Positions 3,880 through 50,060 of a stretch of DNA of 64,000 nt are shown here, in pieces (position 1 is the first letter of the stretch; each line of letters starts with the position of its first letter). The notes beneath the pieces are model-generated. The model was given only the letters and a program-made list of their open reading frames with translations, did not search any database and was not told where the DNA came from. Both the position numbers and the translations under genes were made by a program. Source of the stretch: Mobula hypostoma (lineage: Eukaryota). The stretch is from NCBI RefSeq assembly GCF_963921235.1, contig NC_086097.1:52888001-52952000 (forward strand). The letters are read 5' to 3'.

Positions 3880-4346
3880 GTCGAGGAACTGATTGTGGAC
3901 TTCAGGACGGGGGAAATTGGGAGAACACACACCAGTTCTCATTGAGGGGTTAGCAGTGGAAACGTTGAGTAGTTCCAAGTTCCTTGGTGTCAACACCTGA
4001 CAGGATCTACCCTCGGCCTAGCAGAATGATGCAATCGTGAAGAAGCATACTATCTCTTACGTCATTAGGAGATAGCATGTCGCTAAACACTAGCAAATTT
4101 CTACTCCTGCACCATGGAGAGCATTCTAACAGGCTGCATATGGAGAGGGCAATACACAGGATCGTAAGATGCCTCAGAAGGTTGTAGATTCAACCATTTC
4201 CATCACGGGCACACAACACTGAGGACATCTTCAAACGGCAGTGTCCAAGAGGGTGGTCTTCATCATTAAGGATCCTGACCATCCAGGAAATGTTCTTTTC
4301 TCATTACTACCACTGGAGAGGGGGTAAAGGAACTTGAAAACCCACA
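3880..4346 (+). mobile_element. Rex-Babar-like LINE 3' fragment, interrupted by a Penelope copy and resuming at about 5327-5510
   Basis: ELIVDFR...HTPVLIEG...KFLGV motif; same family as 34930-35770 and 42380-42960. Confidence 0.65.
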
Positions 4347-4357
4347 CCAAAGTTCAG

Positions 4358-5300
4358 GCAACACACATCAAAGTTGCTGGTGAACGCAGCAGGCCAGGAA
4401 GCATCTCTAGGAAGAAGTGCAGTCGACATTTCGGGCCGAGACCCTTCGTCAGGACCAACTGAAAGAAGAGCTAGTAAGAGATTTGAAAGTGGGAGGGGGA
4501 GGGGGAGATCCAAAATGATAGGAGAAGACAGGAGGGGGAGGGATGGCGCCAAGAGCTGGACAGGTGATTGGCAAAAGGGATATGAGAGGATCATGGGACA
4601 GGAGGCCCAGGGAGAAAGACAAGGGGGAGGGGAGGGTTAAAACCCAGAGGATGGGCAAAGGGTATAGTGAGAGGGACAGAGGGAGAAAAAGGAGAAAGAG
4701 AAAAAGTGTGTATATAAATAAATTATGGATGGGGTACAAGCGGGAGGTGGAACATTAGCGGAAGTTTGAGAAGTCAATGTTCATGCCATCAGGTTGGAGG
4801 CTACCCAGACGGAATATAAGGTGTTGTTCCTCCAACCTGAGTGTGGCTTCATCTTTACAGTAGAGGAGGCTGTGGATAGACATATCAGAATGTGAATGGG
4901 ACGTGGAATTAAAATGTGTAGCCACTGGGAGATCCTGCTTTCCCTGGCAGATAGAGCGTAGGTGTTCAGCAAAACGATCTCCCAGTCTGCATCGGGTCTT
5001 GGCAATATATAGAGGCCACATCGGGAGCACCAGACACAGTATATCACCCCAGCCGACTCACAGGTGAAGTGTCACCTCACCTGGAAGGACTGTCTGGGGC
5101 CCTGAATGGTGGTAAGGGAGGAAGTGTAAGGGCATGTGTAGCACTTGTTCTGCTTACAAGGATAAGTGCCAGGAGGGAGATCAGTGGGGAGGGATGGGGG
5201 GGGACGAATGGACAAGGGAGTCGCATAGGGAGCGATCCCTGCGGAAAGCAGAGGGGGGAAGGGAAAGATGTGCTTAGTGGTGGGATCCCGTTGGAGGTGG
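4358..5300 (-). mobile_element. Penelope-like element, 5'-truncated (GIY-YIG region plus terminal repeat), copy 1
   Basis: Frameshifted YIAKTRCRLGDRFAEHLRS...RLEEQHLIFRLGSLQPDGMNIDF. Candidate TSD accaaagttca on both sides. Confidence 0.85.
4421..4456 (-). ncRNA. Minimal hammerhead ribozyme motif (GAAAT-GTC variant)
   Basis: Reverse complement: GGTC-CTGACGA-AGGGTCTCGGCCC-GAAAT-GTC-GACT. Confidence 0.65.
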
Positions 5301-6476
5301 CCAACCAAAGTTCAAACCAAAGTTCAGGAGCAGCTTCTTCTCCTCTGCCATCAGATGTCATTGTCTATGGACACATGAACAATACCTCACTACTCCTCTT
5401 TTGCAGTGTTCATTCATTTTTATTGTGACTTATACTAATTTGTTAATCCTGCACTGTATTCTGCCACACAAAAAAAAACTTCATGACATTTGTTAGTGAC
5501 AATAAACCTGGGCTTCTGAGCTCAGCTTCTGTAAAGATTTGATAAACTGGAAATAATTTTCCTTGTGATAAGAAACCAAAACAAAAATAATCTATCTCGC
5601 AGTCCATCAAAAGGTGGATCTAAAGGGATCATGTAGGGTATAAAGAGAAGACTGATAAAAGAGAACTGTGCAGATGGCCTTAGGTTACAAGTGCATGAGG
5701 TTAATCACCTGAGCATGTAAAGGGGTAAAGGTTTAAGGTCTTGGAGTGTTTCCATTCATTTAACCAACTCCAGAGATACAACGAGTTTTTCACCAAATAC
5801 TCAACCCTTGGATTATACAGAGAATGGTAAGGAAAGCTCTTCAGAATGCAGCCAATCAAAGCTTTTAAAAAGCAGTTTTAGCAAAACTTGTCTCTTCTCT
5901 TATATGCAGCTCACCTGTCAATGTGATTTTCCACACTGTCCCACTTTGATTTCTCCACTTCCAGTAGTTTTCCATTGAAACATGGCATTATTTTATGACA
6001 CTTAACTCCATATTTCAAATCAGACCTTTTTAACTCTCCAGGCTAAACACGGGGCTGAAAATAGAAAGTGCTGGAAACGTGCAACAGCTCCAGCAGATCA
6101 GTAAGGAAAGAAAGAAAAAGAATGAATGCTTCAATCTTTCAATTGGGTTGAATAAATTCAGGTTATAACTACTATCTCCAATGTTTCAGATAACATCAAT
6201 TGGCGATGATTCTGCTAATGCCACTTACACTTTCTCAACACCTACTTTTGTTCTATTCATCTCATCGCTTTCCCATGTTAACTTAAACCAGCATCCTTTC
6301 CTTTTGTTTTTACTTCCCCTCCCTATTTTTTTACAAAATCTAGTTTTCCCGTACTAAAGAATTGGAAACCTGAAACGTTACCTTGATTGTCTCTCTAGAA
6401 ATGGTTTTTGCAGCATTTTCTAAATTTAAAAAATACTAGTGTGGTTCCAAGAGCAAAGGGTTCCAGAAAACCTGGT

Positions 6477-7458
6477 CACACGAGGAAATCTGCAGATGCT
6501 GGAATTTCAAGCAACACACATCAAAGTTGCTAGTGAACGCAGCAGGCCAGGCAGCATCTCTAGGAAGAGGTGCAGTCGACGTTTCAGGCCGAGACCCTTC
6601 GTCAGGACTAACTGAAGGAAGAGTGAGTAAGAGATTTGAAAGTTGGGGGGGGGGGGGAGCGAAGAGATCCAAAATGATAGGAGAAGACAGGAGAGGGAGG
6701 GATGGAGCCAAGAGCTGGACAGGTGATTAGCAAAAGGGATACGAGAGGATCATGGGACAGGAGGTCCGGGAAGAAAGACAAAGGGGGGGGGGAACCCAGA
6801 GGATGGGCAAGGGGTATATTCAGAGGGACAGAGGGAGAAAAAGGAGAGAGAGAGAAAGAATGTGTGTATAAAAGTAAGTAACAGATGGGGTACGATGGGG
6901 AGGTGGGGCATTAGCGGAAGTTAGAGAAGTCGATGTTCATGCCATCAGGTTGGAGGCTACCCAGATGGAATATAAGGTGTTGTTCCTCCAACCTGAGTGT
7001 GGCTTCATCTTTACAGTAGAGGAGGCCATGGATAGACATGTCAGAATGGGAATGGGATGTGGAATTAAAATGTGTGGACACTGGGAGATTCTGCTTTCTC
7101 TGGCGGACAGAGCGTAGGTGTTCAGCAAAGCGGTCTCCCAGTCTGCGTCGGGTCTCGCCAATATATAAAAGGCCACATCGGGAGCACCAGACACAGTATA
7201 TCACCCCAGCCGACTCACAGGTGAAGTGATGCCTCACCTGGAAGGACTGTCTGGGGCCCTGAATGGTGGTAAGGGAGGAAGTGTAAGGGCATGTGTAGCA
7301 CTTGTTCCGCTTACAAGGATACGTGCCAGGAGGGAGATCAGTGGGGAGGGATGGGGGGGGGGCGAATGGACAAGGGAGTCGCATAGGGAGCGATCCCTGC
7401 GGAAAGCAGAGGGGGGAAGGGAAAGATGTGCTTAGTGGTGGGATCCCATTGGAGGTGG
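6477..7458 (-). mobile_element. Penelope-like element copy 2 (GIY-YIG endonuclease region open)
   Basis: ORF 6911-7519 reads CKRNKCYTC...VIYCVWCSRCGLLYIGETRRRLGDRFAEHLRSV, a Cys-rich linker followed by GIY-YIG. Confidence 0.9.
6574..6609 (-). ncRNA. Minimal hammerhead ribozyme motif, consensus core intact
   Basis: Reverse complement: AGTC-CTGACGA-AGGGTCTCGGCCT-GAAAC-GTC-GACT. Confidence 0.75.
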
Positions 7459-8632
7459 CCAACCAAAGTTCAAACCAAAGTTCAGGAGCAGCTTCTTCTC
7501 CTCTGCCATCAGATGTCATTGTCTATGGACACATGAACAATACCTCACTACTCCTCTTTTGCAGTGTTCATTCATTTTTATTGTGACTTATACTAATTTG
7601 TTAATCCTGCACTGTATTCTGCCACACAAAAAAAACTTCATGACATTTGTTAGTGACAATAAACCTGGGCTTCTGAGCTCAGCTTCTGTAAAGATTTGAT
7701 AAACTGGAAATAATTTTCCTTGTGATAAGAAACCAAAACAAAAATAATCTATCTCACAGTCCATCAAAGGTGGATCTAAAGGGATCATGTAGGGTATAAA
7801 GAGAAGACTGATAAAAGAGAACTGTGCAGATGGCCTTAGGTTACAAGTGCATGAGGTTAATCACCTGAGCATGTAAAGGGGTAAAGGTTTAAGGTCTTGG
7901 AGTGTTTCCATTCATTTAACCAACTCCAGAGATACAACGAGTTTTTCACCAAATACTCAACCCTTGGATTATACAGAGAATGGTAAGGAAAGCTCTTCAG
8001 AATGCAGCCAATCAAAGCTTTTAAAAAGCAGTTTTAGCAAAACTTGTCTCTTCTCTTATATGCAGCTCACCTGTCAATGTGATTTTCCACACTGTCCCAC
8101 TTTGATTTCTCCACTTCCAGTAGTTTTCCATTGAAACATGGCATTATTTTATGACACTTAACTCCATATTTCAAATCAGACCTTTTTAACTCTCCAGGCT
8201 AAACACGGGGCTGAAAATAGAAAGTGCTGGAAACGTGCAACAGCTCCAGCAGATCAGTAAGGAAAGAAAGAAAAAGAATGAATGCTTCAATCTTTCAATT
8301 GGGTTGAATAAATTCAGGTTATAACTACTATCTCCAATGTTTCAGATAACATCAATTGGCGATGATTCTGCTAATGCCACTTACACTTTCTCAACACCTA
8401 CTTTTGTTCTATTCATCTCATCGCTTTCCCATGTTAACTTAAACCAGCATCCTTTCCTTTTGTTTTTACTTCCCCTCCCTATTTTTTTACAAAATCTAGT
8501 TTTCCCGTACTAAAGAATTGGAAACCTGAAACGTTACCTTGATTGTCTCTCTAGAAATGGTTTTTGCAGCATTTTCTAAATTTAAAAAATACTAGTGTGG
8601 TTCCAAGAGCAAAGGATTCCAGAAAACCTGGT

Positions 8633-8765
8633 CACACGAGGAAATCTGCAGATGCTGGAATTTCAAGCAACACACATAAAAGTTGCTAGTCCTGACGAAG
8701 GGTCTCGGCCCGAAACGTCGACTGTACCTCTTCCTAGAGATGCTGCCTGGCCTGCTGCGTTCACT
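8633..8765. mobile_element. Penelope-derived mini element with internal inversion; contains a + strand hammerhead motif at 8688-8723
   Basis: Terminal-repeat sequence only. Flanked by agaaaacc(t/a)ggt (8621-8632 and 8766-8777). Confidence 0.8.
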
Positions 8766-9155
8766 AGAAAACCAGGTGATTTTTTTCTCGGATCAAAGAT
8801 TTTACAACAGTAACAAAACCATTATAGCAAGAAGCAGCTCCCATTAGCAAATTGGTCGAGGGGATGCAGGTTTAAGATTCTGGCTAAATGATCATTGTGT
8901 AATTGTGCTCTGGAATATGTTGTCTGCAAGGGTGTTTGAAACAGAAACGGTGCCCTCGAAAAAAAGTGGATGGGTATTTATAAGAGAAAATAGTTTACGG
9001 GACTCATTCACAGGCGTGGATTGTACTACTGAGAATTAGCCGAATTGATTGATTTATGACTAAACAACTACTACCCACACAAAAACTCAAAATGCTGTAA
9101 ATACTCAGACAGAGAAGCAACATCAGCAGAGAGAAGAAAACAGAATTCATATTTC

Positions 9156-11090
9156 AGCAACACACATCAAAGTTGCTGGTGAATGCAGCAGGCCAGGCAG
9201 CATCTCTAGGAAGAGGTACAGTCGATGTTTCAGGCCGAGACCCTTCGTCAGGACTAACTGAAGGAAGAGTGAGTAAGAGATTTGAAAGTTGGAGGGGGTG
9301 GGGGAGATGCAAAATGATAGGAGAAGACAGGAGGGGGAGGGATGGAGCCAAGAGCTGGACAGGTGATAGGCAAAAGGGGATATGAGAGGATCATGGGACA
9401 GGAGGTCCGGGAAGAAAGACAAGGGGGAGGAACCCAGAGGATGGGCAAGAGGTATATTCAGAGGGACAGAGGGAGAAAAAGGAGAGTGGGAGAAAGAATG
9501 TGTACATAAAAATAAGTAACAGATGGGGTACGAGGGGGAGGTGGGGCATTAGCGGAAGTTAGAGAGTCAATATTCATGCCATCAGGTTGGAGGCTACCCA
9601 GATGGAATATAAGGTGTTGTTCCTCCAACCTCAGTGTGGCTTCATCTTTACAGTAGAGGAGGGCGTGGATAGACATGTCAGAATGGGAATGGGATGTGGA
9701 ATTAAAATGTGTGGCCACTGAGAGATCCTGCTTTCTCTGGCGGACAGAGCGTAGGTGCTCAGCAAAACGATCTCCCAGTCTGCGTCGGGTCTCACCAATA
9801 TATAAAAGGCCACGTCGGGAGCACCGGACACAGTATATCACCCCAGCCGACTCACAGGTGAAGTGTCGCCTCACCTGGAAGGACTGTTTGGGGCCCTGAA
9901 TGGTGCTAAGGGAGGAAGTGTAAGGGCATGTGTAGCACTTGTTCCGCTTACACGGATAAGTGCCAGGAGGGAGATCAGTGGGGAGGCATGGGGGGGGGGG
10001 ACGAATGGACAAGGGAGTCGCGTAGGGAGCGATCCCTGCGGAAAGCGGTGGGGGGCGGGGGGAAGGTGTGTTTAGTGGTGGGATCCCGTTGGAGGTGGCG
10101 GAAGTTACGGAGAATAATATGTTGGACCCGGAGGCTGGTGGGGTGGTAGGTGAGGGCCAGGGGAACCCTATTCCTAGTGGGGTGGCGGGAGGATGGAATG
10201 AGAGCAGATATACGTGAAATGGGGGAGATGCGTTTGAGAGCAGAGTTGATGGTGGTGGAAGGGAGGCCCCTTTCTTTAAAAAAAGGACATCTCCCTCGTC
10301 CTAGAATGAAAAGCCTCATCCTGAGAGCAGATGCGGCGGAGACGGAGGAATTGCGGGAAGGGAATGGCGTTTTTGCAAGAGACAGGGTGAAAAGAGGAAT
10401 AGTCCAGATAGCTGTGAGAGTCAGTAGGCTTATAGTAGACATCAGTGGATAAGCTGTCTCGAGAGACAGAAAGATCTAGAAAGGGGAGGGAGGTGTCGGA
10501 GATGGACCAGGTAAACTTGAGGGCAGGGTGAAAGTAGGAGGCAAAGTTAATAAAGTCAACGAGTTCTGCATGCGTGCAGGAAGCAGCGCCACTGCAGTCG
10601 TCGATGTAGCGAAGGAAAAGTGAGGGACAGATACCAGAATAGGCACGGAACATAGATTGTTCCACAAACCCAACAAAAAGGCAGGCATAGCTAGGACCCA
10701 TACGGGTGCCCATAGCTACACCTTTAGTTTGGAGGAAGTGGGAGGAGCCAAAGGAGAAATTATTAAGAGTAAGGACTAATTCCGCTAGACGGAGCAGAGT
10801 GGTGGTAGAGGCGAACTGATTACGTCTGGAATCCAGAAAGAAGCGTAGAGCTTTGAGACCTTCCTGATGGGGGATGGAAGTATATAAGGACTGGACATCC
10901 ATGGTGAAAATAAAGCGGTGGGGGCCAGGGAACTTAAAATCGTCGAAAAGTTTAACAGCGTGAGAAGTGTCACGAACATAGGTCGGAAGGGATTGAACAA
11001 GGGGGAATAAAACCGTGTCGAGGTATACAGAAACGAGTTCGGTGGGGCAGGAGCAAGCTGAGACAATAGGTCGGCCAGGACAGGCAGGTT
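9156..11090 (-). mobile_element. Penelope-like element copy 3: RT plus GIY-YIG endonuclease, frameshifted and 5'-truncated; hammerhead-like motif at 9220-9255
   Basis: RT motifs MDVQSLYTSIP, QTKGVAMGTRMGPSYA, FLRYIDD, FLDL and VYYKPT; endonuclease YIGETRRRL. Candidate TSD tatttc(a/g)gc. Confidence 0.92.
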
Positions 11091-11348: not shown

Positions 11349-11500
11349 CTGGAGCTGTTGTGCTCTACATCGGAACGTCCGACAGGCCAGATTAGTGGCA
11401 ACTCGGCATCTCGTCTCCCATAGGAGCTGCTGCTGCTGCCCTCGTTGACAACGCTTTCTATTCTTGGCTATTTCTGATGTCGATTAAACTGTTGCCCACC
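11349..11500 (-). other. TXNDC16: Probable non-coding first exon of TXNDC16 (boundaries approximate)
   Basis: Minus-strand donor-like sites CAG|GTAGGG (about 11348) and GTAAGC (about 11338) sit next to the promoter. The assignment is inferred. Confidence 0.45.
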
Positions 11501-11700
11501 GCTTCCGGTACTGGCACAGGCTTCTGACTACGCGTGCGCCCACCTCAAATCCGCCCCTCCCCCCGGTCTGATTGACGTGCAGGGATGACCCGGCTCCCCC
11601 AATCAGAGACCGATGGGGGCGGGCTGGTCGGCGGCTGGCTGGATGTGTTTTTTTTTGTTGTCGGAGCTGAGGCAGCGGACGGATGGCGAGTGTTTGTCCG
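11480..11700. promoter_or_regulatory. Bidirectional CpG-rich promoter (TXNDC16/GPR137C)
   Basis: CTTCCGG ETS-like site (11502), CGCGTGCGC NRF1-like site (11531), GC boxes (11551, 11615), CCAATCA (11599), CTGATTG/TGACGT (11568-11578). No TATA box seen. Confidence 0.7.
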
Positions 11701-11725
11701 TAGCAATCGCTGGATACTCGTGACC

Positions 11726-12112
11726 ATGTCCCCGCAGAGCTCGGCTGCGAACGCGGGTCTGTTCTCATCATTGACGGCAGCTCCAGACAAGCCGATTGAG
11801 GCTGCGGTGCCCCCCTCAGTGGAGCTCGGCTTGACCGTGGTTTACACCGCTCTGTACTCTCTGCTTTTCCTATTCGTTTACCTGCAGCTCTGGTTGGTCT
11901 TGCACTATAAGCACAAGCGCTTCAGTTACCAGACCGTATTTTTGTTTCTCTGTCTGCTCTGGGCAGGGCTGAGGACTACCCTCTTTTCGTTTTACTTTAA
12001 AAATTGTGTCCAGGCCAATCAGTTGGAGCCTTTGCCTTACTGGCTGCTGTATTGTTTCCCTGTGTGTTTGCAGTTCTTCACGTTGTGTCTGCTAAATCTT
12101 TATTTTGCGCAG
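11726..12112 (+). CDS. GPR137C: GPR137C integral (lysosomal) membrane protein, exon 1
   Basis: accATG start. Reads MSPQSSAA...[60 protein letters not shown]...NLYFAQ|gtatgt. 387 nt. Confidence 0.93.
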
Positions 12113-21285: not shown

Positions 21286-22924
21286 TAAAACAAGGTAGTC
21301 CCTGCATCGTTATCCCTCTTCTGAAAGATATATTTTAATTATATATTTTAGACACATGCTTTACTGATGAGGTGATTAAGGAAGCATTTTGTGTCATAGT
21401 GCATGATTTATTATCATTCATAGACAATGTATCAAGCCTTAATCCTTCAGATTAAGATTACTCAGATTTATTTCTCAGTAGTCCTGTTAGTATTTTAAAT
21501 AATGAGCCCATGGGGCTTACTAGTTATGGAAGTTAATTGATGTCTTTTTATATTGGTGGTCAGAAGGAAGCAAAGGAGGTCAGATAAGAAGTCTGTTTAT
21601 TCATTACTCATGAAGGGTCTTTCTGTATTTGCCAATCCTTCGGAACACATTATTTTCAGAGGAAGCATTGTATCTTTTACCAGGAAGAACTCTACAGTCA
21701 TTTCTTCACTTCAGTGTGTGATTGTTCACAACCCCAAAAGTTTTATTACCAGGTGATGCGTCTTATTTTTATGAATTGGTTTCAGAATTTGGAGCTTATA
21801 ACCAATTGTTTTTTTTTAACCTCATTATGGACCATTGTTAGCAATACTTGAATCCACTCGAGCTGCGGAGAGATTGAATTGGATTTGAGTATTTCCACAC
21901 TTCCTTGAACTAGCAAATCTAGCAACCTGGTGTTTCATTAGAGAAACAAAGGTAGATTTATAAGTATTAGCAGATCCTATAATGTGCTTCCCCTTCTCCC
22001 TCTTTTGGTGTTATACTACCATTCCCTAAGTGTCAGTGAACTTTTCTCAGGGACCCTGCTTGTCGGTGCCCATGCTCGTGAAAAGTGACTTGTGTTGGTA
22101 TCAAGCAGTAGTAAATCAAAGCAACTGGACTTGCTGTGTTGTCTAGAAGACGCTTTGCCACTCATCCAAGAGGCTTCTTCACTTCTAATCCATGGTGGGT
22201 AGTTCGCTGGCTTTTAAACTTGAGTTGTTTAAAGGTATAGCAATTGTAGAAGCTATCTTTGTCGAACCGGAAAACCCATCCCTGAACAGGGGGTGGGATA
22301 CAACGTTACCTATCGGCTACTTACAATGCAGTCCTCACATCTCTACCCCGGCGTCTCCACAACAGTTCACACATCCATTCATGCAAAAATAAGACTAATG
22401 ACCCTCCCATTACCTCTACAACGCTTAAAGACCCTCATTTTCATTTTTAAAATCTTTTTATTGATATATAATCTTCTACAGCTATAAAGTACAAACGTTC
22501 AACAAATTAGTATTTATATAATTAATAAAGCTGAAAAAAACTTGTATATGCTAATGAAAAAGAAATTTTATATAAGAAACAGATCGTTTTATGAAGCCTC
22601 TATTTCCTTAATTCTTAAAAAGAATAAAGATCCTACTGATTGTGCATCATACAGACCGATATCTCTTCTGAATGTAGACTCTAAAATTTTTTCAAAAATT
22701 CTAGCAACTAGACTGGAGAAGGTGTTACCTCAAATTATTTCCATGGATCAAACCGGATTTATTAAAAATCGCTATTCATCCTTTAATATTAGGAGGTTAA
22801 TGAATATTGTTTACACCCCCTCATTTACTACCCCGGAATGTACTATCTCATTAGATGCTGAGAAAGCCTTTGACAGAGTTGAATCGCCTTATTTATTTAA
22901 TGTTCTTGAGAAATTTAATTTTAA

Positions 22925-23035
22925 TTTGACATTTATATCTTGGATTAAATTGTTATTTTACTTTGACATTTATATCTTGGATTAAATTGTTATTTTACTT
23001 TGACATTTATATCTTGGATTAAATTGTTATTTTAC
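22925..23035 (+). repeat. 3 x 37-bp perfect tandem repeat inside the L1 RT
   Basis: tttgacatttatatcttggattaaattgttattttac repeated three times. Confidence 0.95.
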
Positions 23036-24219
23036 TCCCCGGTAGCCTCGGTTTGTACAAATAATTATAGATCTCCTTTTTTTCGTCTTTTTCGTGGTAC
23101 TAGGCAAGGTTGCCCTCTTAGTCCTTTACTATTTAATATTGCTCTTGAACCTTTAGCAATTGCTGTTCGTGACTCGCCAAATATTGTTGGTATTACCCAT
23201 GGAAACGAAATACATAAATTATCATTATATGCAGATGATTTGTTGTTATACATCTCTAACCCGGAGAAGTCAATTCCTGCTATCCTAGATCTGTTAGCTC
23301 AATTTAGTAACTTCTCTGGTTGCAAATTGAATCTTAGTAAGAGTGAATTATTCCCTTTAAATAAGCATGTACCTAATTATGGACGTTTACCATTTAAATT
23401 GGTTACTGATTCATTTATATATTTAGGGATAACAATTACGAAAAAATATAAAGATTTATTTAAAGCTAATTTTTTTACCTTTAATTGATCAGATTAAATT
23501 TTTATTTACCAAATGGTCCCCAATCTCTTTGTCTTTGATTGGTCGGATTAATGCTATTAAGATGATCATTTTGCCCAAATTTTTGTACATATTCCAATCG
23601 GTACCAATTTTTATCCCAAAATCTTTTTTTGATAACGTAGATTCAAAAATTTCCTCATATATTTGGCAGAATAAAAATCCTAGGTTAGGTAAAGGGTATC
23701 TACAGAAATCTAAAAAGGAGGGGGGGCTCGCCCTCCCAAATTTTAGATTCTATTATTGGGCAATTAATATTCGATATTTAAAATTTTGGTTACAAGATTT
23801 GGACGCATCTTTAAACCCTCATTGGGTAAATCTTGAATCTAGTTCATTACAAGGGTTTTCCTTGGGTTCGGTTTTAGGAACTTTACTTCCTTTTACTTCT
23901 GTTAAATCATATAAACAAATGAACATCCCAATAGTTAAGCATACTTTACGTATATGGTTTCAATTCCGAAGATATTTTGGGTTTAATCAATTTATTCTAG
24001 CAAGTCCCATTATATCAAATTTTCTTTTTCAACCTTCCACGATGGATCAAGCTTACTTTGATTGGAAAACCAAAGGTATAATATTTTTAAGCAACATACA
24101 TCAAAGTTGCTGGTGAACGCAGCAGGCCAAGCAGCATCCATAGGAAGAGGTGCAGTCGACGTTTCAGGCCGAGACCCTTTGTCAGGACTAACTGAAGGAA
24201 CCTAACCTAACCTTCAGTT

Positions 24220-24255
24220 AGTCCTGACGAAGGGTCTCGGCCTGAAACGTCGACT
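24220..24255 (+). ncRNA. Minimal hammerhead ribozyme motif; predicted cleavage after 24251
   Basis: AGTC-CTGACGA-AGGGTCTCGGCCT-GAAAC-GTC^GACT. Confidence 0.75.
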
Positions 24256-24512
24256 GCACCTCTTCCTATGGATGCTGCTTGGCCTGCTACGTTCACCAGC
24301 AACTTTGATGTATGTTGCTTGAATTTCCAGCATCTGCAGAATTCCTGTTGTTTGCGTTTAAATTCACTACTGCGAAGCCTCTTCCGGTGATGCCTACACC
24401 GAAGAAGTTTAGATCCTCTCTTCGACGGGAGTTCAGTGAAACCATCTCTCACTGCTCCCCATCTGTAATTTCATCGGCTCTTCAACTTTTCGACCACACA
24501 CTTCCTTCAGTT

Positions 24513-24548
24513 AGTCCTGATGAAGGGTCTCGGCCTGAAACGTCGACT
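24513..24548 (+). ncRNA. Minimal hammerhead ribozyme motif; predicted cleavage after 24544
   Basis: AGTC-CTGATGA-AGGGTCTCGGCCT-GAAAC-GTC^GACT. Confidence 0.75.
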
Positions 24549-27500
24549 GCACCTCTTCCTATGGATGCTGCTTGGCCTGCTGCGTTCACCAGCAACTTTG
24601 ATGTGTGTTGCTTGAATTTCCAGCATCTGCAGAATTCCTGTTGTTTGCGTATAATATCTTTTCGCGATTTATTTTTGGATAATTGTTTTATGTCTTTTGA
24701 TCAACTTTCTAATAAATATAACTTACCCAGATCTCACTTTTTTAGGTATCTACAGATTAGAAACTTTTTAATTACTGTTTCCCCTAATTTTCCACACCCA
24801 TATCCAATGGACACTTTGGAAAAAATCTTAGATTTAAATCTCTCTCAGAAAAGTGTAGTAGCAATTATATATAATATAATTATGAATCTATGTCCTGATG
24901 CTTCTAATAAAATTAAAGCTGACTGGGAAAGAGAACTTGAGATTAATATACCGACTGAAAAATGGGAAAAAATTCTTCAGTTGGTGAACTCATCCTCCAT
25001 ATGTGCTAAGCATAGGTTGATACAGTTTAAAGTAGTGCACAGGGCTTATATGTCCAAAGATAAACTATCTCGTTATTACTCTTATATTAATCCAATATGT
25101 GACAGATGCCATTCCGAGATAGCTTCTTTAACCCACATGTTTTGGTCACGTCCCTTGTTGGAGAAATATTGGAAAGATATTTTTGATATTATTTCAACGG
25201 TCCTAAATATAGACTTATAACCTCATCCAATTACTGCTATCTTTGGACTACCAATGATAGATTTAAATAATTTAACCTCTTCATCACGAAGGATGATTGC
25301 ATTTCTTTCTTTAATAGCTAGAAGGTCCATTTTGTTGAATTGGAAAGAGATTAATCCTCCTACTCTATTTCATTGGTTTTCACAAACTATGGTGTGTTTG
25401 AATTTGGAGAAAATTAGAAGTGCAGTTTATGACCCTTCCATTAAGTTTGAAAAAACTTGGAGGCCATTCATTCAGCATTTTCATTTGATGTAATTTGATC
25501 ATTTCCAAATTTGTTTTATCTCTCTGTACTGTTGTTGGAGGGGAATGGAGTCGTCGACACTAAGGTTTTCTTCTTTTCCACTTTTAAGTTGTTAGTTTTG
25601 CCCAAGTCTTTTAGTTTGTTGATTAAGTTTGTTTTTCTTTGGGGATGGGGTTTGCTTTTTTTTTGTTTTTTTTTTCTTTTTCATGATTTTTTTTCCAGTT
25701 TTTTTTTGCTTTGTATTATCCGTGGTTAATTCTACATGTTTGGGAGCTTTGTTGATTTACACTACTTGGTTTTGCAATTACTTTTTTAAGTGTAACAATA
25801 TATCTCCTATTATTTGTATTATTGCTATGTTTTGTTTCTATATTTTGAAATTAATAAAAAGATTGAAAAAGAAAGAAAGAAAAAGAAGGAAAAAGAGAAC
25901 TCCAACTAACTAAAAAAAAACCCACTAACTACAAAAAAAAACCATTAGGAACCAACACCCAGAGCAATACATCTTAGAATCATCTATATATATATAAAAT
26001 ATATATATTTTAAAAAGAAACGCAAAATCATATTTATATAACATAAAATTGGAAGGAAACCATACAAATTAATTCAAATTAAATGATAATATTTGGCAAA
26101 AGAGCCCCACCTTCTCTCAAAATCGAATCAGGGATCAAAAGTTCTACTTCTAATTTTTTCCAAACTAAGACGTAACATTACTTGGGAAAATCATTGAATT
26201 AGTGTAGGAGCAGAGGTATCTTTCCACTTCAATAAAATAGCCCTTCTTGCCAACAATGTAACAAATGCAATTACATGTTGGTTTGAAAATGAAATACCCT
26301 GAATATGATGCGGAGCTATTCCAAATAGAGCAGTCAATGTATTAGGTTGTAAATTAATTTTCAAAGCTTTAGAAGTTGTAGAAAATATTTCAATGAGGGA
26401 CATGACCAGAACATATGTGACAGAGTAGCTACTTCATTTTTACACCTATCACAATAATTGTCTATATTAGGAAATATTTTGGATAACCTCTCATATAAAG
26501 ACCCTCAGATGATTGCTATACCTTTAAACAACCCCGTTTATAAGATTGAAAACTACCCACATGGATTAGAAGAGAAGAAGCCTCTTGGATGAGTGGCGAA
26601 ATGTCTTCTAGACAACACAGCAAGTCCAGTTGCCTTGATTTACTACTGCTTGGTATACAATGACCTGGATGACTGAGAGCCTTCATGGATAATTGTGTTG
26701 GAACTTGTCCAAGCAAGAGATTAAGCCGTAATTAGGATAAAAACATGAAGTCAACTGGAACCCTCCATTGGAAATGTTTGTAAATGTCCACCTGACTGTC
26801 ATTGCAGACCAGGAATCAAACTAGGAGTTCTGTTCATTGCTTAGCATTGTGCATTTTCCAACTGGACCATTGAGGTGTCAGTGAATGTTACAATGGTATT
26901 AATTAACACTTCCTGATATGCAATAACGTGATATTGTATAAAGTACTGATGGGTAGAACATTAATTGACATTTCTAGATGCTTGGAATGGGAAGCTGAGT
27001 GACGCTGTTCACAGCCCTCGAGTATCAGTGTAATAATTTTGTAGTACTCCAGAACTCCATAGAAATGATCATGACCCCAAACAATGCCTGTCACCTGCAC
27101 ATACCTTTTGTACATCTTTAACAAAGTCTGATTGGCAAGTTCTGTGAGTGATTGGGTTTTGGTATTTCTCGAATATCAATGCAGCCAAGTATATACAAAT
27201 CATTAGCTAACCCCATGTTGCATGGTATCTAATGTGAATGATTATTAAAAGATTTTATGCAGCTGTTTAATTTGTACAGCTATCTGTAGGTAAACTTGGT
27301 GCTTTTTTATCCTTCCATTTGTGTTGAGGCTTGTCATGTCTTTTTTCAAAAATGTGCTGCACATGGTTAAATATAGTGCTGCAGCAGGGCACTGACGTGA
27401 TTTCTAAAGATTTCATTAATTTAGCTATAGCAAAGAACCTCTTTAAGATGGGTTAAGAAGATGAGAACAATTAGATTCATTACAGCATGACCGCAAGAAT

Positions 27501-29064: not shown

Positions 29065-29904
29065 ATTGCTGCCTTCTGGGCAGTGCCTTTATAAGACAGG
29101 TGACCCCAGCCATTATCAATACTCTTCAGTGATTGTCTGCCTAGCATCAGTGGTCACATCACCAGGACTTGTGATGTGCACCAGCTACTCATAGGACCAT
29201 CCACCACCTGCTCCCATGGCTTCATGTGATGTTGATCGGGGTGGGTGGGCTAAACAGGTGATAGGACTTGCCCAAGGGTAATCTGCAGGCTAGCGGAAGG
29301 AAGGAGCATCTTACACCTCCTTTGATACCCAAGCCACCTGTGTTACTGCTGAAAAATTAATTTCATGGCATTTATACCTGGGGTATATATGCCTATTAAA
29401 AAAAATTTGAACTTGAGAATTTGAGGTAATGCATTGTGATCTGGAATTCACTGCCTGACAAGGTGGGAGTAGATTCAGTGGTTTTGAAAGAAATCATAAC
29501 TATTGGAGGGGAGGGTGTGTGTGTGTATCTGGAGAAATGCCAAGGAATGGCTATGAAAATGGTAAAATATCCTCTTATGGTGACCATATAATACTGCATA
29601 CCACCATAATGAACATCAAGCATCACTGTTCTGTTACAGCTTCCCAATATTACATAAGCAATTTTGAATTAAATGTAACCAACGTAGCTGTACCCTACAT
29701 TATCCACTCTCTTCTATGACAGTTGGCTTCAGAACTTGATTTTGCTAATAGTTTTCCTTCACGCTATGCTTGCCCTTCAAATTTGACCGTGATTCAGCTC
29801 CAGCTTCCTTTCAATCTCCAGATTCATCATGTGCTTGAACAGAGTTAGGCCCTTCAACCATTCGTTTAGATCATGGCAGGCCTATGCTTCGAACCCATTA
29901 ACTT

Positions 29905-31220
29905 TGTAGAACACAAGAAATAGGAGTAGGCCATCCGGCCCATCGAGCCTGCCCCACCATTCAATAAGATCATGGCTGATCTGTCTGTAAACTCAGCTCC
30001 ATCTACCTGCCTTTTCCCCGTAACCCTGAATTCCCTTACTACGTAAAACCTATCTAACTGTTTCTTAAATACATTTAGTGAAGAAGCCTCAACTGCTCTC
30101 CTGGGCAGAGAATTCCACAGATTCACCACTCCCTGGGAAAAACAGTTTCTCCTCATCTTCATCCTAAATCTTCTCCCCTGAATCTTGAGGCAATGTCCCC
30201 TAGTTCTAGTCTCATCTACCATTGGAAACAACTTTCCTACTTCTATCGTATCTATCCCTTTCAAAATGTTGTATGTTTCTATAAGATCCCGTCTCATTCT
30301 TCTGAACTCCAGAGAGTATAGTCCCAGACGACTCAATCTTTCCTCATAGGTTAACCCTTTCATCCCTGGAATCAACCTGGTGAACCTCCTCTGCACTGCC
30401 TCCAAAGCCAGTATATCCTTCCTCAAGTATGGAGACCAGAACTGCACACAGTACTCCAGGTGCGGATTCACCAGTACCCTGTATAGTTGCAGCATAACCT
30501 CCCTGCTTTTGAATTCAAGCCCTCTGGCAATGAAGGACAACTTTTTGTGATTCATGCACAAGCACTCCCAAGTCCCTCGGCACAACAGCATGCTACAATC
30601 TTTCACCATTTAAATCATAATCTGCTCTTCTATTATTCCTTCCAAAGTGGATGGTCTCGCAGTGACCAACATTGTATTCCATCTGCCAGACCTTGACTGA
30701 CTTACTTAACCCATCTATATCTCTCTGCAGACTCTCCACCTCCTCTGTACAATTTGCTTTTCCACTCAGTTTAGTGTCATCAGCAAATTTTGTTATGCTA
30801 CACTTAGTCCCCTCTTGCAAATCATCAATGTAAATGGTAAACAGCTGCGGGCCCAGCACCGACCCCTGCGGCACCCCACTCACCACTGACTGCCAACCGG
30901 AGAAACACCCATTTATACCAACTCTCTGTCTTCTATTGGTTAACCAATCCACTATCCATGCCAATACACTTCCTCCAACTCCATACATCCGTATCTTATT
31001 TATAAGTCTCTTGTGCTGCACCTTATCGAACACCTGAAAATCCAAGTATACAACATCCACCTGTTCCCCTCTATCCACTGCACTCATTATGTCCTCAAAG
31101 AACTCCAGTTAGTTTGTCAAACAGGACCTGCCCTTTCTGAATCTATGCTGTGTCTGTCTAATGGAACCACTCCTTTCTAAATGTTTTGCTATTTCTTCCT
31201 TAATGACAGCTTCAAGCATT
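29905..31220 (-). mobile_element. CR1 LINE RT 3' portion
   Basis: VDVVYLDFQ, SGVPQGSVLGP, KFADD and PHLEYCVQFWSP motifs. Confidence 0.92.
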
Positions 31221-37667: not shown

Positions 37668-40600
37668 GTAGACCATAAGACATAGGAGTAGAATTAGGCC
37701 ATTTGGCTCATCGAATCTGCTCCACCATTCAATCATGGCTAGTCCTTTTTTTCCCCTCCCCCCACCCCCCCCCCCCGCCAGCCGCATTCCGCGGTCTTCT
37801 CCCCGTAACCTTTCATGCTTTGGCCAATCAAGAACCTATCAAGCTCTGCCTTAAATACACCTGGCCTCCACAGCTGCCTGTTTCAAATTCACCACCCTCT
37901 GGCTAAAGAAATTTCTCCACATCTGTTTCGAAAGGGTGCCCCTCTATCCTGTAGCTGTATCCTCTTGCCCTATACTCCCCCACCACGGGGAAACAACTTT
38001 TCCACATCTAATGTCTAGACCTTCCAACGTTCAAAGTTTCCATGAGATCCCCCCCACACACACATCCTTTTAAATTCCAGTGAATAGAGACCCAGAGCTA
38101 TCAAACATTCCTAGTATGATAACTCTTTCATTCCCAGAATCATCCTTGCCAACCTTCTTTGAACTCTCTCCAATGCCAGCCCATTTTTTTTAAGATGATG
38201 AGCCCAGAACTGTTCACAATACTCGAGGTGAGGCCTCACCAGTGCCTTATAAAGCCTCAGCATCACATCCCTGCTCTTGTATTCAAGACCTCTTGAAATG
38301 AATGCCAACATTGCATTTGCCGCCTTCACCACCAACGCTACCTGCAACCTTATGTTTTGCACAAAGACTCCCAAGTCCCTTTGCATTTCAAATTTTTGGA
38401 TTTTCTCCCCATTTAGAAAATAGTCCACACATTTATTTCTTCTACAAAAGTGCATGATCATGCATTTTCCAACATTGTATTTCATTTGCCACTTTCTTGC
38501 CTATCCTCCTAATCTGTGGCTAAGTCCTTCTGCAGTCTACCTGTTTCCTCAACCCTATCTGCCTCTCCACCCATCTCCATATCATCTGCAAACTGTCACC
38601 AATGCCACCTATTCATCTAAATCATTAACATGCAGCATAAAAAGCAGTCCCAACACTGACCCCTGTGGAACACCACTAGTCACTGACAGCCAATTCAAAA
38701 AGGATCCTTTTATTCCCACTCACTGCCTCCTACCGATCAGCCAATGCTCTAACCATGCCAGTAAATTTCCTGTAAGACCATTGGCTGTTAACTTGGAAAT
38801 CAGCCTCATATGTGGCACCTTGACAAAGGCCTTCTGAAAATCCAAGTAAGCAACATCCACTACATCCCCTTTATCTATCCTACTTGTTATCTCCTCAAAG
38901 AATTCCAACAGGTTCATCGGGTAAGATTTTCCCTTAAGGAAACCATGCTGACTTTGTCCTATCTTGTCCAGTGTCATTAAGTACTCCATAATCTCCATCC
39001 TTAACAATTGACTGCAACATCTTCCCAACCACTGAGGTCAGGCTAATTGGTCTATAATTTCCTTTCTGCTGCCTCTCTCCTTTCTTAGAGTGGAGTGCCA
39101 TTTGCAATTCTCCAGTCCTCTGACACCATGCCCAAGTCCAATGATTTTTGAAAGATCATTACTAATGCCTCCACAATCTCTGCTGCCACCTCTTTCAGAA
39201 CCCTAGGGTGCAGTTCCTCTGGTCCAGTTAACTTGGGTACCCTTGGGTCTTTCAGCTTTTTGAGCATCTTCTTCCTTGTAATAGTAACTGCACTCACTTC
39301 TCTTCCCTCACACCCTTCAACAGCTGACACACTGCTAGTGTCTTCCACAGTGAAGACTGATGCAAAATACTCATTTAGTTCATCTGCCATTTCCTTGGCC
39401 CCTGTTGTTATTTTTCCAGCCTTGTTTTCTAATGGTCCTATATCCACTCTCATCTCTTATTTTTTACATACTTGAAAAAGCCTTTACTATCCACTTTGAT
39501 ACTGTTTGCTAGTTTGTTTTCATATTTCATCTTTTCCCTCCTAATAATTTTAGTTGCTCTCTGTAGACTTCTAGAAGTTCCCAATGTTTTATCTTCCAAC
39601 TAATTTTTGCTTATTATATGCCCTCACTTTTGCTTTAACATTAGCTTTGACTTCCCATGGTTGTACTATTTTGCCATTTGAGAATTTCTTCATTTTGGAA
39701 TGCATCTGTCCTGCACCTTCCTCATTTTCCAGAAACCTGTGCCATTGCTGCTGTCTTGGCATCCCTGCCAGCATCTCCTTCCAATTTAGTTTGGCCAATT
39801 CCTCTGTCATACCACTGTATTTCCTTTACTCCGCTGAAATACTGCTACGTCAGACTTAACTTTCTCCCCATCAGATTTCAAGTTGAACTCAGTCATATTG
39901 TGATCACTCTCTCCTTGGGGTCTTTCTAACTTAAACTCCTTAATTAGCTCCAGTTGATTACATAACACCCAATCCAATATAATTCATCCCCTAGTGGGCT
40001 CAATAATGTACTACTGTAAAAAGCCATCTCATAAGCATTCAACAAACGCTCTCAAGATCCATTTCCAACCTGATTTTCCCAATTGACTTGCATGTTGAAA
40101 TCTCCCATGACTATCATAACGTTGCCCTTTTGACATACCTTTTCTGTTTCCTGTCTTAATCTGTAGTCCACATCCCAGCTTCTGTTGGGAGGCCTGTATA
40201 TAACTGCCATCAGGATCCTTTCACCCTTGCAGTTTCTTGACTCAATCCACAGTGGTTCAACATCTTCTGCTCCTGTGTCACATCTTTCTACTGATTTGAT
40301 GCCATTCTTTACCAGCAGAGCCAGGCCACCCTCTCTGCCTACCTTCTTATCGCTCCAATACAATGTGTAGCCTTGTACATTCAGCTCCCAACTACAACCG
40401 TCCTTGAGCCATGATTCAGTGATGGCCACAACATCACACCTGACAATCTGTAATAGTGCAACAAGATCATCCACCTTATTTCTTGCATTCTGTGCTTTGA
40501 GATTTAACAGTTTGTGTACTGTATTTGCTACCCTTTTTGATTCTGCATCCCTAATGCACTGATGCTCCTATAATCTGCCTGCCCTTTCTGACAGTCTGAC

Positions 40601-45900: not shown

Positions 45901-47112
45901 CTATGGCGTGCCAGCAAGCAAAACTTGACCAGCGCGTTCAGGTGCCATTTTGAGGTCCCCGAGTGACAGTTTTACTAGTCAATATGGACCTAGTTGGTCC
46001 TCTTCCTCCCCCCGCGCCCCCCCACGGTTTCTCACACCACCTTACCATGGTGGACTGTAGAACCTTCAGATGGCCAAAGATCATCCCTCCAGCATTGACG
46101 ACAGCCGCAGACGTGGCTCCGGCGTTCATTAGCAACTGGGTTGCTCCGTTTGGTACCCCATCTGATATTTCCTTTGACCATGGTCCCCAGCTCATATCAG
46201 ATCTCTGGGCTGCAATGGCCCATAACCTCAACGTTGGGCTACATCACACCACAGCGTGTCACCTGCAGTCCAATGGCCTATGTGGGTGGTTTCACCACTC
46301 CTTTAAAGCTGCTCTGAGGGCTCCCTGATGGATGAGTGTGGGCATGATCATCTCCCGTGGGTCCTGCTGGGGCTCAGAACAGCACCAAATGAGGACCTGC
46401 ACTCTGTCGCTGAGGTGGTATATGGGCAGCTGTTACGAGTGCCAAGTAATTTTATTCCTGACGCCATGACCGCCTGGTCAGCCTCTCAACAGTGTTCATC
46501 CTGCTCAGTAAATTCAATTCCCTTGCACCTATTCCTACCTCCCATCATAGTGTGCAGCAATCTTGGGTTCCTGTTAACTTGCATTCCACCTCATTTGTTT
46601 TCATCTGCCATGATGCATACCAACATCCCCTTAGGCCCATGTGATGGCCCATACCTGTTTTGGAATGGAGAGAAAAGACTCGTATCATAAGGTGGGTAAA
46701 CCTGAAGTGATTTGGGAGATCACTTCAATCCGCCCACCGAGTTTTGGAGCGTTCTGCTACTATCCCTTTGTCATCATGACATGAGCATGGGTGTGTCAAC
46801 ACACCTCTGGACAAGCCAGAGTTACCTGCTGTTCCAACATCCATGGACCATGGGACCCGAGCCGGGTGGATCATCTGAGCTCCGGACGGGCTGTCAATGC
46901 TGATTTTAGTAAATTCTTGTCGGGGTGGGGGCTGTAATGGGAATGCAATTGGTGGAGACGTACAGAATTCACAACCACCAACATTGAGTTGGTGTTCACT
47001 TTAAGAGGCAGGTCTGATGTGATTACATAAATACTGTTACCGTGCTTTGTCTTCAGTTTTTTGGAGATCATAAAAGCAGTTGTCACAGTTTCTCTGAAAC
47101 AAAAAGCCACAC
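43000..47112 (+). mobile_element. Degenerate Ty3/Gypsy LTR retrotransposon (protease-RT-RNaseH-integrase; possible 3' LTR from 46933)
   Basis: Protease LCDTGA; RT KVDLVKGYH and VYLDD; LQEFLGMVNFY; integrase MDLVGPLP...FGTPSDISFDHGPQ. A G-rich polypurine-like tract precedes TGTAA at 46933. Confidence 0.88.
43999..44740. mobile_element. Non-autonomous hAT-type DNA transposon (MITE)
   Basis: TIRs caatgttccc / gggaacgttg; 8-bp TSD cttaatga (43991-43998 and 44741-44748). Confidence 0.85.
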
Positions 47113-47602: not shown

Positions 47603-47803
47603 AGCGAGGAAATCTGCAGATGCTGGAATTTCAAGCAACACACACAAAAAAAATGCCGGTGGACGCAGCAGGCCACGCAGCATCTATAGGAAGAGGTACA
47701 GTCGAGATTTCGGTCCTGATGAAGGGTCTCGGCCTGAAACATTGACTGTACCTCTTCCTATAGATGCTGCCTGGTCTGCTGCGTTCACCAGCATTTTTTG
47801 TGT
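47603..47803. mobile_element. Palindromic Penelope-derived mini element with a hammerhead-like motif at 47712-47747 (GAAAC-ATT variant)
   Basis: Inverted terminal-repeat arms; CTGATGA...GAAAC core on the + strand. Confidence 0.8.
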
Positions 47804-49179: not shown

Positions 49180-50060
49180 AAATTCAGTTCTAACTAGAAG
49201 GCTACAATGTGCGCAGACAGAAAATGGGGTGCTGTATGTTAAACTTGCATTGGGTCTGTCAAACAGTGCAGGAAGCCACGGATTGATGGGTCAGAGGAAT
49301 GGAATGAAGAATTAAAACAGACAATTGGAAATTCTGGGTTGCCACTGTAGATTGCAAGCAAATGTTCCACTAAGCAATGGTCCAATCTGCCAATCTGCAT
49401 TCCATCAATGTGAACACTGAATGCAGTACATTGGGTTGGAAGGGGTGTAAGTGAATTGCTGCTTCATCTGCAAAGATTATTTGGGTCTGTGGATGGTAGG
49501 AACCACAGAGATGAAAGAACTAGTGCTGCATTGCCTGTGGCTGGTGGAACATGCTGTAAGAAAAGGGGGCATTAGTAGCAATATAGGGAGTCACAATGGG
49601 AATGGTCCTTGTGAAATGCTGAAAGAGGTGGAGAGTGAAATGTGAACACAAAATACTTTGCAGATGCTGGGGTCAAAGCAACACTCACAACACGCTGGAG
49701 GAACTCAGCAGGTCGGGCAGCATCCGTGGAAACGATCAATCAACGTTTCGGGCCGGAACCTGACAACCGAAGGGTTCCAGCCCGAAACGTTGACTGATCG
49801 TTTCCACGGATGCTGCCCGACCTGCTGAGTTCCTCCAGCGTGTTGGGAGAGCGAAATGTGTTAGGTGATGGGATTTCTTTGGAGGTGGCAACAAATGATC
49901 TGTTGAATGCCAGGCTGTTGGAGTGAAAGGTGAGGGCCAGGGAAATCTCTATCCTTACTCTCTCCCCTCTGGGACAGAGCAGGAGCATAGACATGGGAAA
50001 TGGGTGAGATGAAGTAGAGGACTTTAACGTTAGTAGAGAAGAAAAAAGTGAGGCATGTAC
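49180..50060 (-). mobile_element. Degenerate Penelope-like remnant hosting a palindromic mini element (49645-49845)
   Basis: LALTFH...FNRSF similarity to copy 3. The insert is flanked by ggagag(t/c)gaaatgtg (49630-49644 and 49846-49860). Confidence 0.7.

Follow-up and report, generated by a model that had tools for sequence, protein, structure and literature searches.

Truncated copies of a Neptune-like Penelope element with minimal hammerhead motifs at the TXNDC16 and GPR137-family locus of Mobula hypostoma

The window, that is, the whole 64-kb stretch of DNA analysed here, holds exons of two host genes and several insertions of a repeat family (Table 1). TXNDC16 is encoded on the minus strand; a donor site and a CpG-rich promoter suggest a non-coding first exon near 11350-11500, and the copies E1, E2 and E3 lie upstream of the three coding exons, within this putative first intron. 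The second gene belongs to the GPR137 family, with later plus-strand exons located by motif near 41.3, 48.3, 50.4 and 53.7 kb, and is probably GPR137C, given its synteny with TXNDC16. The original prediction held that the motifs at 24220, 24513 and 47712 are sense in this gene, which the exon evidence on the plus strand supports. It also placed those at 4421, 6574 and 9220 in sense orientation in a TXNDC16 intron, which is probable: the coding exons agree, and the first exon is the putative one above. The host introns carry six complete motifs in sense and two in antisense orientation, few and non-independent as these are, which indicates that sense copies have not been purged.

Table 1. Host exons, repeat copies and hammerhead motifs in the window.
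Feature	Position	Strand	Remarks
TXNDC16 coding exons (three)	2778-2520, 1035-952, 248-174 (approx.)	-	match PF24508
E1, 5'-truncated copy, short 3' end	4358..5302	-	target duplication 13-16 bp (4343-4358, 5313-5328)
Hammerhead motif of E1	4421..4456	-	GGUC stem I, C15.2>U
X, host intron DNA with a second copy at 7460-8634	5303..6477		see X'
E2: endonuclease end, 3' UTR, pLTR with long tail	6478..7459	-	chimeric
Intact motif of E2, sense to TXNDC16	6574..6609	-	cut site 6578/6577
X', duplicate of 5303-6477	7460..8634		differs over 1175 bp by 2 substitutions and 2 homopolymer gaps
P, short insertion with 5' inversion	8635..8768		12-bp target duplication, one mismatch
Intact motif in P, antisense to TXNDC16	8688..8723	+	additional to the original prediction
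E3, longest copy, 5'-truncated within RT region, short 3' end	9157..11089	-	possible 6-bp target duplication
Hammerhead motif of E3	9220..9255	-	single change G16.2>A; predicted cut site 9224/9223
CX4CxxC linker and GIY-YIG endonuclease	9569..9970	-	C-C-H-H residues recognisable; Arg replaces one linker-adjacent Cys
RT core fragment	10273..11088	-	74% identity to Chiloscyllium punctatum protein; 52-63% to invertebrate-type relatives
GPR137-family gene, coding exon 1	11726..12112	+	paralogue name GPR137C from synteny with TXNDC16
D, single insertion within L1-like element	24089..24648		13-bp target duplication, one mismatch
Inverted-arm motif of D	24154..24189	-	G8>A; fuzzy search
D1, intact motif, sense to GPR137C	24220..24255	+	predicted fully paired with inverted arm
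D2, intact motif	24513..24548	+	293 nt downstream of D1
Short palindromic insertion	47604..47797		long-tailed partial arm (minus) and decayed-motif arm (plus)
Motif of this insertion	47712..47747	+	GGUC stem I, G16.2>A and C17>U
Palindromic insertion, second pLTR family	49648..49846		15-bp target duplication, one mismatch

Upstream of the motif and on the same strand, matches were found to a reverse transcriptase (RT) profile (PF00078, E 3e-6, short of the curated cut-off) and to a GIY-YIG profile (PF01541, E 2e-5, above the cut-off), in the same order as in single-ORF relatives (P0024, for example), where RT is followed by a C-terminal GIY-YIG. An ORF joining both domains had been described; the domains and their strand stand, while the single frame does not, as the longest copy (E3) is spread over three frames, with changes near 10280 and 9990, and lacks the N-terminal 290-440 residues relative to six relatives. 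A PDB search using a full-length relative returned no match, and NCBIfam returned weak group I intron endonuclease matches alone, all under the cut-off. The CX4CxxC linker between RT and GIY-YIG is seen in E1, E2 and E3; linkers of the form CX2-5CxxC occur in 91 of the 93 relatives of sufficient length (set of 120) and are common to Neptune and Nematis as presented by Craig et al. (2021, PMC8557442). The family is thus probably a Neptune-like EN+ Penelope-like element (PLE), its placement in Neptune and not Nematis resting on the linker and the host range. The RT, linker and C-terminal GIY-YIG, the 5' truncation, partial tandems and inverted 5' copy, and the tail of 30-40 bp at one end all resemble the Neptune clade as that article describes it; no microsatellite targeting was seen at the insertions here.

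The general PLE layout is also present: a pLTR that extends into the beginning of the ORF, copies in tandem and in inverted order, an optional tail and target duplications. Contig joints from 24647/24650 to 24357 show that in other copies the tail continues into the ORF leader, and the 36-codon frame in D, which no protein match covers, is probably the ORF start. Among the papers examined, none reports this element family from sharks or rays, and it may well already be catalogued in Repbase or Dfam.

A scan of the window with CTGANGA-N3-25-GAAAC gave seven matches against 1.0 expected, a number reached by none of 100 shuffles, and six of the seven belong to the Penelope hammerhead family. By fuzzy search, eight complete minimal type I motifs were found, approximately one per 8 kb. 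The six positions and strands originally predicted were correct, and two more motifs existed: 8688, within the originally described interval but on the opposite strand, and 24154. That the string stands in all terminal repeats was an overstatement: it occurs exactly in four of the eight (6574, 8688, 24220 and 24513), or three of the six then named. All eight have an extra A between positions 9 and 10.1, and seven keep C3-A9 and G12-A14, the exception being 24154. The palindromic ACGU at stem III, without loop 3, is found in five, and the other three are CpG-decayed. The A15.1-U16.1 pair, the NUH site and helices I and II accompany this core, as do the extra nucleotide at 9/10.1, the G10.1 pair and the palindromic 15.2-16.2 described by Cervera 2014. 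In the second pLTR family stem II is retained with a different loop II, position 17 is U, and the core is broken at the inversion junction. Domains, linker and motif anatomy therefore agree with the proposal of a Penelope-like element whose terminal repeat bears a minimal type I hammerhead.

This association is already known, and the present cartilaginous-fish, high-density family extends it. Metazoan PLE motifs, as described in the text of Cervera 2014 (PMC4209133), share the position in the pLTR, the 4-5 bp helix I, the extra base before 10.1 and the absence of loop 3; they are mostly solo copies and opposite-strand pairs, known from the fish elements Neptune, Poseidon and Xena. The Schistosoma minimal hammerheads have a helix II of 7-8 bp, unlike the 4 bp seen here, where 10.1-11.1 is G-U in about 75-84% of contig depth. 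Cartilaginous fishes are not named in the passages of that article consulted; its supplements, like those of Li, Clavereau and Pollet (2026), may list chondrichthyan motifs.

The 3' ends of the insertions, set by eye from the target duplications, lie at +67, +67, +69 and about +98 to +104 past the cut site. The optional tail is accordingly 31-37 nt, in agreement with the PLE anatomy (30-40 bp) given by Frangieh et al. (2024, PMC11167929) and Craig et al. (2021). An inverted arm is found in all four short insertions, as in published PLEs; in P, the tail arm (8635-8690, minus) and the hammerhead arm (8687-8768, plus) are adjoining pieces of a single pLTR, with a 4-base overlap. Of ten family arms, none has its start at the cut site, and the 5' ends of five cluster 31-48 nt upstream of it.

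The observed anatomy, ends and decay are best explained, with a probability of about 0.8, as dead, 5'-truncated copies of a very high-copy Neptune-like Penelope, whose hammerhead is kept in the source elements and is a neutral passenger once inserted, host pre-mRNA presumably being cut rarely if ever. The source-element pLTR would carry a minimal type I hammerhead with a stem I of 4-5 bp, an extra A before G10.1, a 4-bp stem II and a loopless palindromic ACGU stem III, which would allow folding only as a dimer. It most likely depends on the element's own protein, and its job, judging from the literature, may be the processing of tandem element transcripts. New copies would arise by target-primed reverse transcription on uncut RNA, probably from two start points that lie about 67 and 100 nt beyond the cut site. 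Priming by both target strands would give the inverted arms, one bearing the tail, and many cDNAs would end 30-50 nt 5' of the cut site, yielding SINE-like solo hammerhead pieces. Inserted motifs would decay neutrally as passengers, and their sense placement in the TXNDC16 and GPR137C introns would be the chance expectation at such copy density. The published account of the Anolis Poseidon element PAc is similar in that two 3' ends occur past the hammerhead, and in its priming on both strands, uncut RNA template and AT-rich targets at several sites (PMC11167929). PAc belongs to another clade, and its ORF starts inside the hammerhead, whereas here the first ATG follows the cut site at a distance of about 140 nt.

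Conservation and decay were compared in assembled contigs of four of 24 runs (two DNA, two presumed RNA); the two DNA runs, X1 and X5, represent two species and gave 88,554 and 63,439 contig records. Summed contig depth was used solely as a ratio and not as copy number, and the ratio of pLTR to ORF-start depth was about 50-80 in X1 and 40-100 in X5; depth across the cut site and molecule starts or ends were disregarded, contigs being unable to show ends. The largest piles of loose ends mark the boundaries of stem I on either side (24513-24515 and 24548-24549) and were present at the 5' end (24513) and the 3' end in four of four runs, which indicates that divergent subfamilies have just the ribozyme block in common. 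In X1 and X5, respectively, CpG loss was 9.7 and 12.7% at G16.2, 7.5 and 10.0% at C17 and 8.5 and 7.4% at G1.1, compared with 8.0-11.0% in loop II and 5.9-10.8% in the flank. G12>A reached 3.4 and 5.6%, roughly one fifth of the fraction of copies that have G12 in a CpG. This test covers the 3' half of the core; the 5' half gave no variant rows, and C15.2>U was likewise unlisted. Missing variant rows at 24461-24530 were rejected as evidence of conservation: the N7 C/T difference is seen in six of the eight window copies, yet even this variant is absent there. From the shared block and the CpG loss, the motif is conserved in the source elements and neutral after insertion. The expected conservation of the core across copies thus holds for the block common to subfamilies, and the 3' half of inserted copies decays like flank. 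Possible A-to-I editing was also noted in family copies, the candidate A-to-G positions being the equivalents of 24561 and 24591.

The neutral-like CpG decay is a family-level, not a locus-specific, observation that bears on a reading as domesticated intronic hammerheads. Those of amniotes (RECK and others), as described in PMC6155905, also present a type I motif, sense in a host intron, but they are canonical, single-copy and ultraconserved, whereas the motifs here are minimal, young, within an element and decaying.

The conserved block could instead be a protein-binding or RT-pausing signal that has the letters of a hammerhead and is no ribozyme. Folds of the monomers have no advantage over shuffled sequences (z -1.41 to 0.27, in itself an uninformative result), the search with hammerhead models that had been proposed, run with Rfam at E<=10, gave five matches and no hammerhead, the insertion templates are uncut, and the five arm ends cluster just upstream of the cut site. 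Moreover, hammerhead mutants of the Anolis element left insertion in vitro unaffected in the account of PMC11167929. Nevertheless, the motif retains all catalytic residues along with the C17 site and the palindrome, the shared block stops exactly at stem I, and related motifs are described as cleaving in vitro (PMC4209133, PMC11167929), so that we consider such a signal very unlikely. Motif pattern scans of metagenome contigs and viral contigs gave no matches.

In the local fold of E1-E3, an upstream helix pairs with the core, with a mean unpaired probability of 0.18-0.56 for the core and below 0.05 for stem II. Dimers were evaluated with a nearest-neighbour model, which is without tertiary contacts; the absolute costs of 14-25 kcal/mol come without an active-ribozyme positive control. 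Cleavage of host pre-mRNA in cis, by an E2+E1 or E3+E1 dimer that lowers or alters the output of TXNDC16 from intron 1, draws on the three sense copies keeping C3-A9 and G12-A14 and on both combinations forming all dimer pairs in the model. The compatible pairs are 2.2-4.8 kb apart (2153 nt for E2+E1), resembling the spacing of about 3 kb in natural PLE tandems, PLE dimers cleave weakly in vitro (both as described in PMC4209133), and the sole antisense arm (8687-8768) can mask only one of the three copies. Against it stand the predicted pairing of the core with the upstream helix, the neutral CpG decay, the Anolis motif, which in the account of PMC11167929 was cut only with protein and left no RNA-seq ends at its cut site, and the reported cleavage of one in nine Xenopus dimer elements. 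Host cleavage of this kind is thus improbable; if true genome-wide, it would mean that a major source of intron cleavage has been overlooked, and only if host introns are cut would the picture of gene regulation in this group of fishes change.

D consists of an inverted arm (24089-24200, minus) followed on the plus strand by a pLTR, the leader, the first 36 ORF codons and another pLTR, the plus-strand part carrying two complete motifs in 1.5 units without coding capacity. In the model, the D1-D2 dimer costs 25 kcal/mol by itself and 86 kcal/mol when the inverted arm is present; the arm should thereby mask one member of the tandem motif pair in GPR137C. The segment 24205-24648 might belong to a retrozyme-like mini-PLE family, cut at both motifs into a 293-nt monomer that is circularised and retrotransposed, and not be a one-off template jump. 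The two intact motifs at that distance, with every dimer pair possible, fit this idea, and chondrichthyan retrozyme units, proposed as PLE derivatives, reportedly average 363 bp. Non-LTR retrozymes, as described in PMC7229834 and by Li, Clavereau and Pollet (2026, 10.64898/2026.07.22.740005), likewise have a pair of type I motifs spaced by about 300 nt and are non-coding and PLE-derived; D differs in its 1.5 units, its minimal motif and the inverted arm masking one motif. However, the unit junction (24496/24497) sits 48 nt upstream of the cut site and is flanked by short homology, 3 of 120 positions distinguish D1 from D2, and the layout equals the published derivative with two direct plus one inverted pLTR. 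In addition, among the 32 contig pieces listed (155,830 lie beyond the list), none crosses the junction and four stop there. A mini-PLE family is therefore unlikely. A ribozyme-ligated circle as the direct template of D was rejected, the unit junction not being at the cut site.

More remote still is a combined scenario in which hammerhead-bearing pLTR pieces are so dense in this fish lineage that sense pairs occur in most long introns. Such pairs, here E2+E1 in TXNDC16 intron 1, would form cis-dimers and cut host pre-mRNA when PLE protein is present, and would otherwise be held off by the anti-core helix and by inverted arms (dsRNA, ADAR-edited), with the 293-nt D unit as a nascent retrozyme from a deleted PLE.

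Under the preferred reading as dead PLE copies, the family would give a clear genomic record of PLE insertion, with two RT start sites, two-strand priming and an uncut template. Its young copies, natural dimers and natural mutants are good material for studying the in vivo role of the PLE hammerhead. As a separate observation, E2 and E1 have an identical 5' junction and flank, yet differ by 7.4% substitutions across the 3' 797 bp, and, barring a mis-assembly, the E1/X/E2/X' arrangement looks like a chimeric duplication.

The hammerhead core pattern was matched seven times in the window, against 1.0 expected, and six of the seven matches belong to the Penelope-like element (PLE) family. A search with mismatches allowed returned eight complete motifs, each of which was aligned base by base. 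The six positions and strands of the original prediction were all correct, and the motifs at 8688 (plus) and 24154 (minus) had been overlooked. The string quoted for every terminal repeat is unchanged in four of the eight motifs and altered in the rest, with differences that are mainly CpG transitions; C3-A9 and G12-A14 are retained in seven. The family is of an already described kind and was rightly recognized as such. An Rfam search of the window did not recognize the motif, and single motifs folded no better than shuffles; both results would be expected for a hammerhead form without helix III.

On the minus strand, TXNDC16 exons match PF24508, and an acceptor precedes the coding exon at 2778. 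A donor at 11349 and a CpG-rich stretch suggest a non-coding first exon. The GPR137-family gene begins at 11726 on the plus strand, with later exons presumably near 41.3, 48.3, 50.4 and 53.7 kb, judging by motifs. The predicted sense assignments of the motifs follow from these gene orientations. Positions 11350-11726 form a short CpG-rich, head-to-head promoter region between the two genes, and the truncated 5′ end of the PLE copy E3 lies ~260 bp from the putative first TXNDC16 donor.

It had been suggested that host transcripts could contain self-cleaving RNA. Within intron 1 of GPR137C, transcription reaches the inverted arm of insertion D first; this arm would pair over ~110 bp with either of the two direct pseudo-LTRs (pLTRs), D1 or D2, leaving one motif free, and it raises the modelled cost of the D1-D2 dimer from 25 to 86 kcal/mol. 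Decay has affected the motif at 47712, which is also masked in part. The three copies in the TXNDC16 intron lie 2.2-4.8 kb apart and share a single antisense arm, enough to mask one of them. Every dimer pair forms in the models of E2+E1 and E3+E1, and E3+E2 has one mismatch, which would make this intron a better cleavage candidate than GPR137C intron 1. In modelled local folds, an upstream helix draws in the catalytic core; when the upstream 21 nt were shuffled, in a post hoc trial on one copy, 1 of 300 shuffles paired the core as strongly. The predicted fold has the pyrimidine-rich 3′ UTR end (6594-6628, minus, and equivalents) pairing with CUGA..GAAGGG and hiding the core. Such pairing is a possible off-switch, and the loose-end consensus of another subfamily retains, by eye, part of the complementarity. 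Low activity is reported for PLE hammerhead dimers by Cervera and De la Pena (2014, PMC4209133), and activity in one of nine Xenopus dimer elements by Li, Clavereau and Pollet (2026, 10.64898/2026.07.22.740005); in the account of PMC11167929, the PAc motif of Anolis needed protein and no RNA-seq ends fell at its cut site. Meaningful cleavage of host RNA by these motifs is unlikely, with a probability near 10%.

From two DNA runs (organisms A and B) and two runs guessed to be RNA, contigs were compared with 24350-24720 at 85% likeness; for DNA, 88,554 and 63,439 contig records were placed. The pLTR depth is some tens of times that of the ORF start, and solo pieces therefore predominate. The largest loose-end piles, at 24513-24515 and 24548-24549, mark the outer ends of stem I. 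Another abundant subfamily has the ribozyme block in common and little else nearby, which amounts to conservation among source lineages. Decay shares are depth-weighted from the variant rows listed, one DNA run being counted in part; there are no rows at 24461-24530, so the comparison covers the 3′ half of the motif, not C3-A9. CpG loss at G16.2, C17 and G1.1 is 7.4-12.7%, against 8.0-11.0% in loop II and 5.9-10.8% in the flank; G12>A reaches 3.4-5.6%, about one fifth of the share of copies with a CpG there. In inserted copies, the 3′-half CpGs are lost like those of loop II and flank, and this half is unprotected. Its sole frequent non-decay variant is C or U at 11.1, either of which pairs with G10.1. 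Both guessed RNA runs show less CpG loss than the DNA runs at seven of the eight CpG positions compared, within and outside the motif, as if younger copies were over-represented. One position is level in organism A, in which 24583 remains lower (6.0 vs 9.0%). At family level, A>G is also higher in the guessed RNA than in the DNA runs at 24561 (11.7/5.9% vs 0.9/1.4%) and 24591 (4.4/3.5% vs 0.9/1.5%), although DNA and RNA samples differ and three further A>G sites lack an excess in both; A-to-I editing of palindromic copies could account for it.

PLE insertions in the window and their target duplications
Insertion	Coordinates	Motifs (strand)	Target duplication	Remark
E1	4358..5302	4421 (-)	13-16 bp	one mismatch
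E2	6478..7459	6574 (-)		
P	8635..8768	8688 (+)	12 bp	one mismatch
E3	9157..11089	9220 (-)	6 bp	doubtful
D	24089..24648	24154 (-), 24220 (+), 24513 (+)	13 bp	one mismatch
47.6 kb	47604..47797	47712	none clear	
49.7 kb	49648..49846		15 bp	one mismatch

An inverted arm is present in all four short insertions. The two arms of P are adjoining pieces of a single pLTR, an arrangement that resembles L1 twin priming. Relative to the cut site, 3′ ends lie at +67 to +69 in three arms, at ~+98 to +104 in four (two being duplicates), and at +49 and ~+57 in two inverted partners; this spread matches the optional tail of 30-40 bp known from PLEs, attributed in Frangieh et al. (PMC11167929) to two internal RT start sites. 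Short-arm 5′ ends lie at -48, -43, -41, -33, -31, -8 and +44. None of ten family arms begins at the cut, and the RNA templates were therefore uncut, as also described in vitro for the Anolis element (PMC11167929). The 5′-end cluster directly upstream of the motif may, at a guess, reflect a transcript start in the pLTR. Inside it lies TCAGTT (24507-24512 and equivalents), which precedes the cut site by ~36 nt and is initiator-like by consensus.

D runs in the order inverted pLTR, pLTR, leader, 36 codons, pLTR, a layout already published for one type of internally deleted PLE. Its D1 and D2 motifs are intact and 293 nt apart, and it resembles a retrozyme unit; none of the contig pieces listed crosses the unit junction. 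The palindrome centre (24201-24210) holds a short CCTAA doublet, absent from the element and probably due to RT slippage. D breaks a plus-strand L1/Tx1-like element (22488-25220) in GPR137C intron 1, and the reading frame of that element continues across the target duplication. At 49411-49945, the palindrome of a second pLTR family sits inside an older, decayed PLE remnant, with weak tblastn and blastn matches on both sides.

Both domains of the predicted RT plus GIY-YIG ORF, the RT as a fragment, precede the 9220 motif on its own strand, but the E3 copy is split over three frames. Aligned to six relatives, E3 also lacks 290-440 N-terminal residues, and is therefore dead. Bamboo-shark proteins match its RT at 70-74% identity; for the other relatives among the 120 of 314 matches listed, coral, anemone, crinoid and snail being among those named, identity is 51-63%. 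A CX4CxxC linker occurs in all three long copies (E1, E2, E3) and in 91 of the 93 relatives long enough to contain one. This motif is given by Craig et al. (PMC8557442) as marking Neptune and Nematis; by its linker the element may be called Neptune-like.

E1 and E2, each with the intron DNA that follows it (X and X′), form a tandem duplication. The host parts (1175 bp) differ by 0.17% substitutions, whereas E1 and E2 differ by 7.4% over the 3′ 797 bp and have their 5′ junction in common; E2 is therefore a chimera, with the junction of E1, the tail of P and a different ~800-bp body. It may have arisen by repair templated on a third copy or cDNA, by recombination with conversion, or by mis-assembly. 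Elsewhere in the window, translations gave fragments resembling Gypsy-type protease, RT and integrase at 43262-46690, and several minus-strand fragments resembling CR1-like LINEs at 29866-31108, 38111-40567 and 54208-56576.
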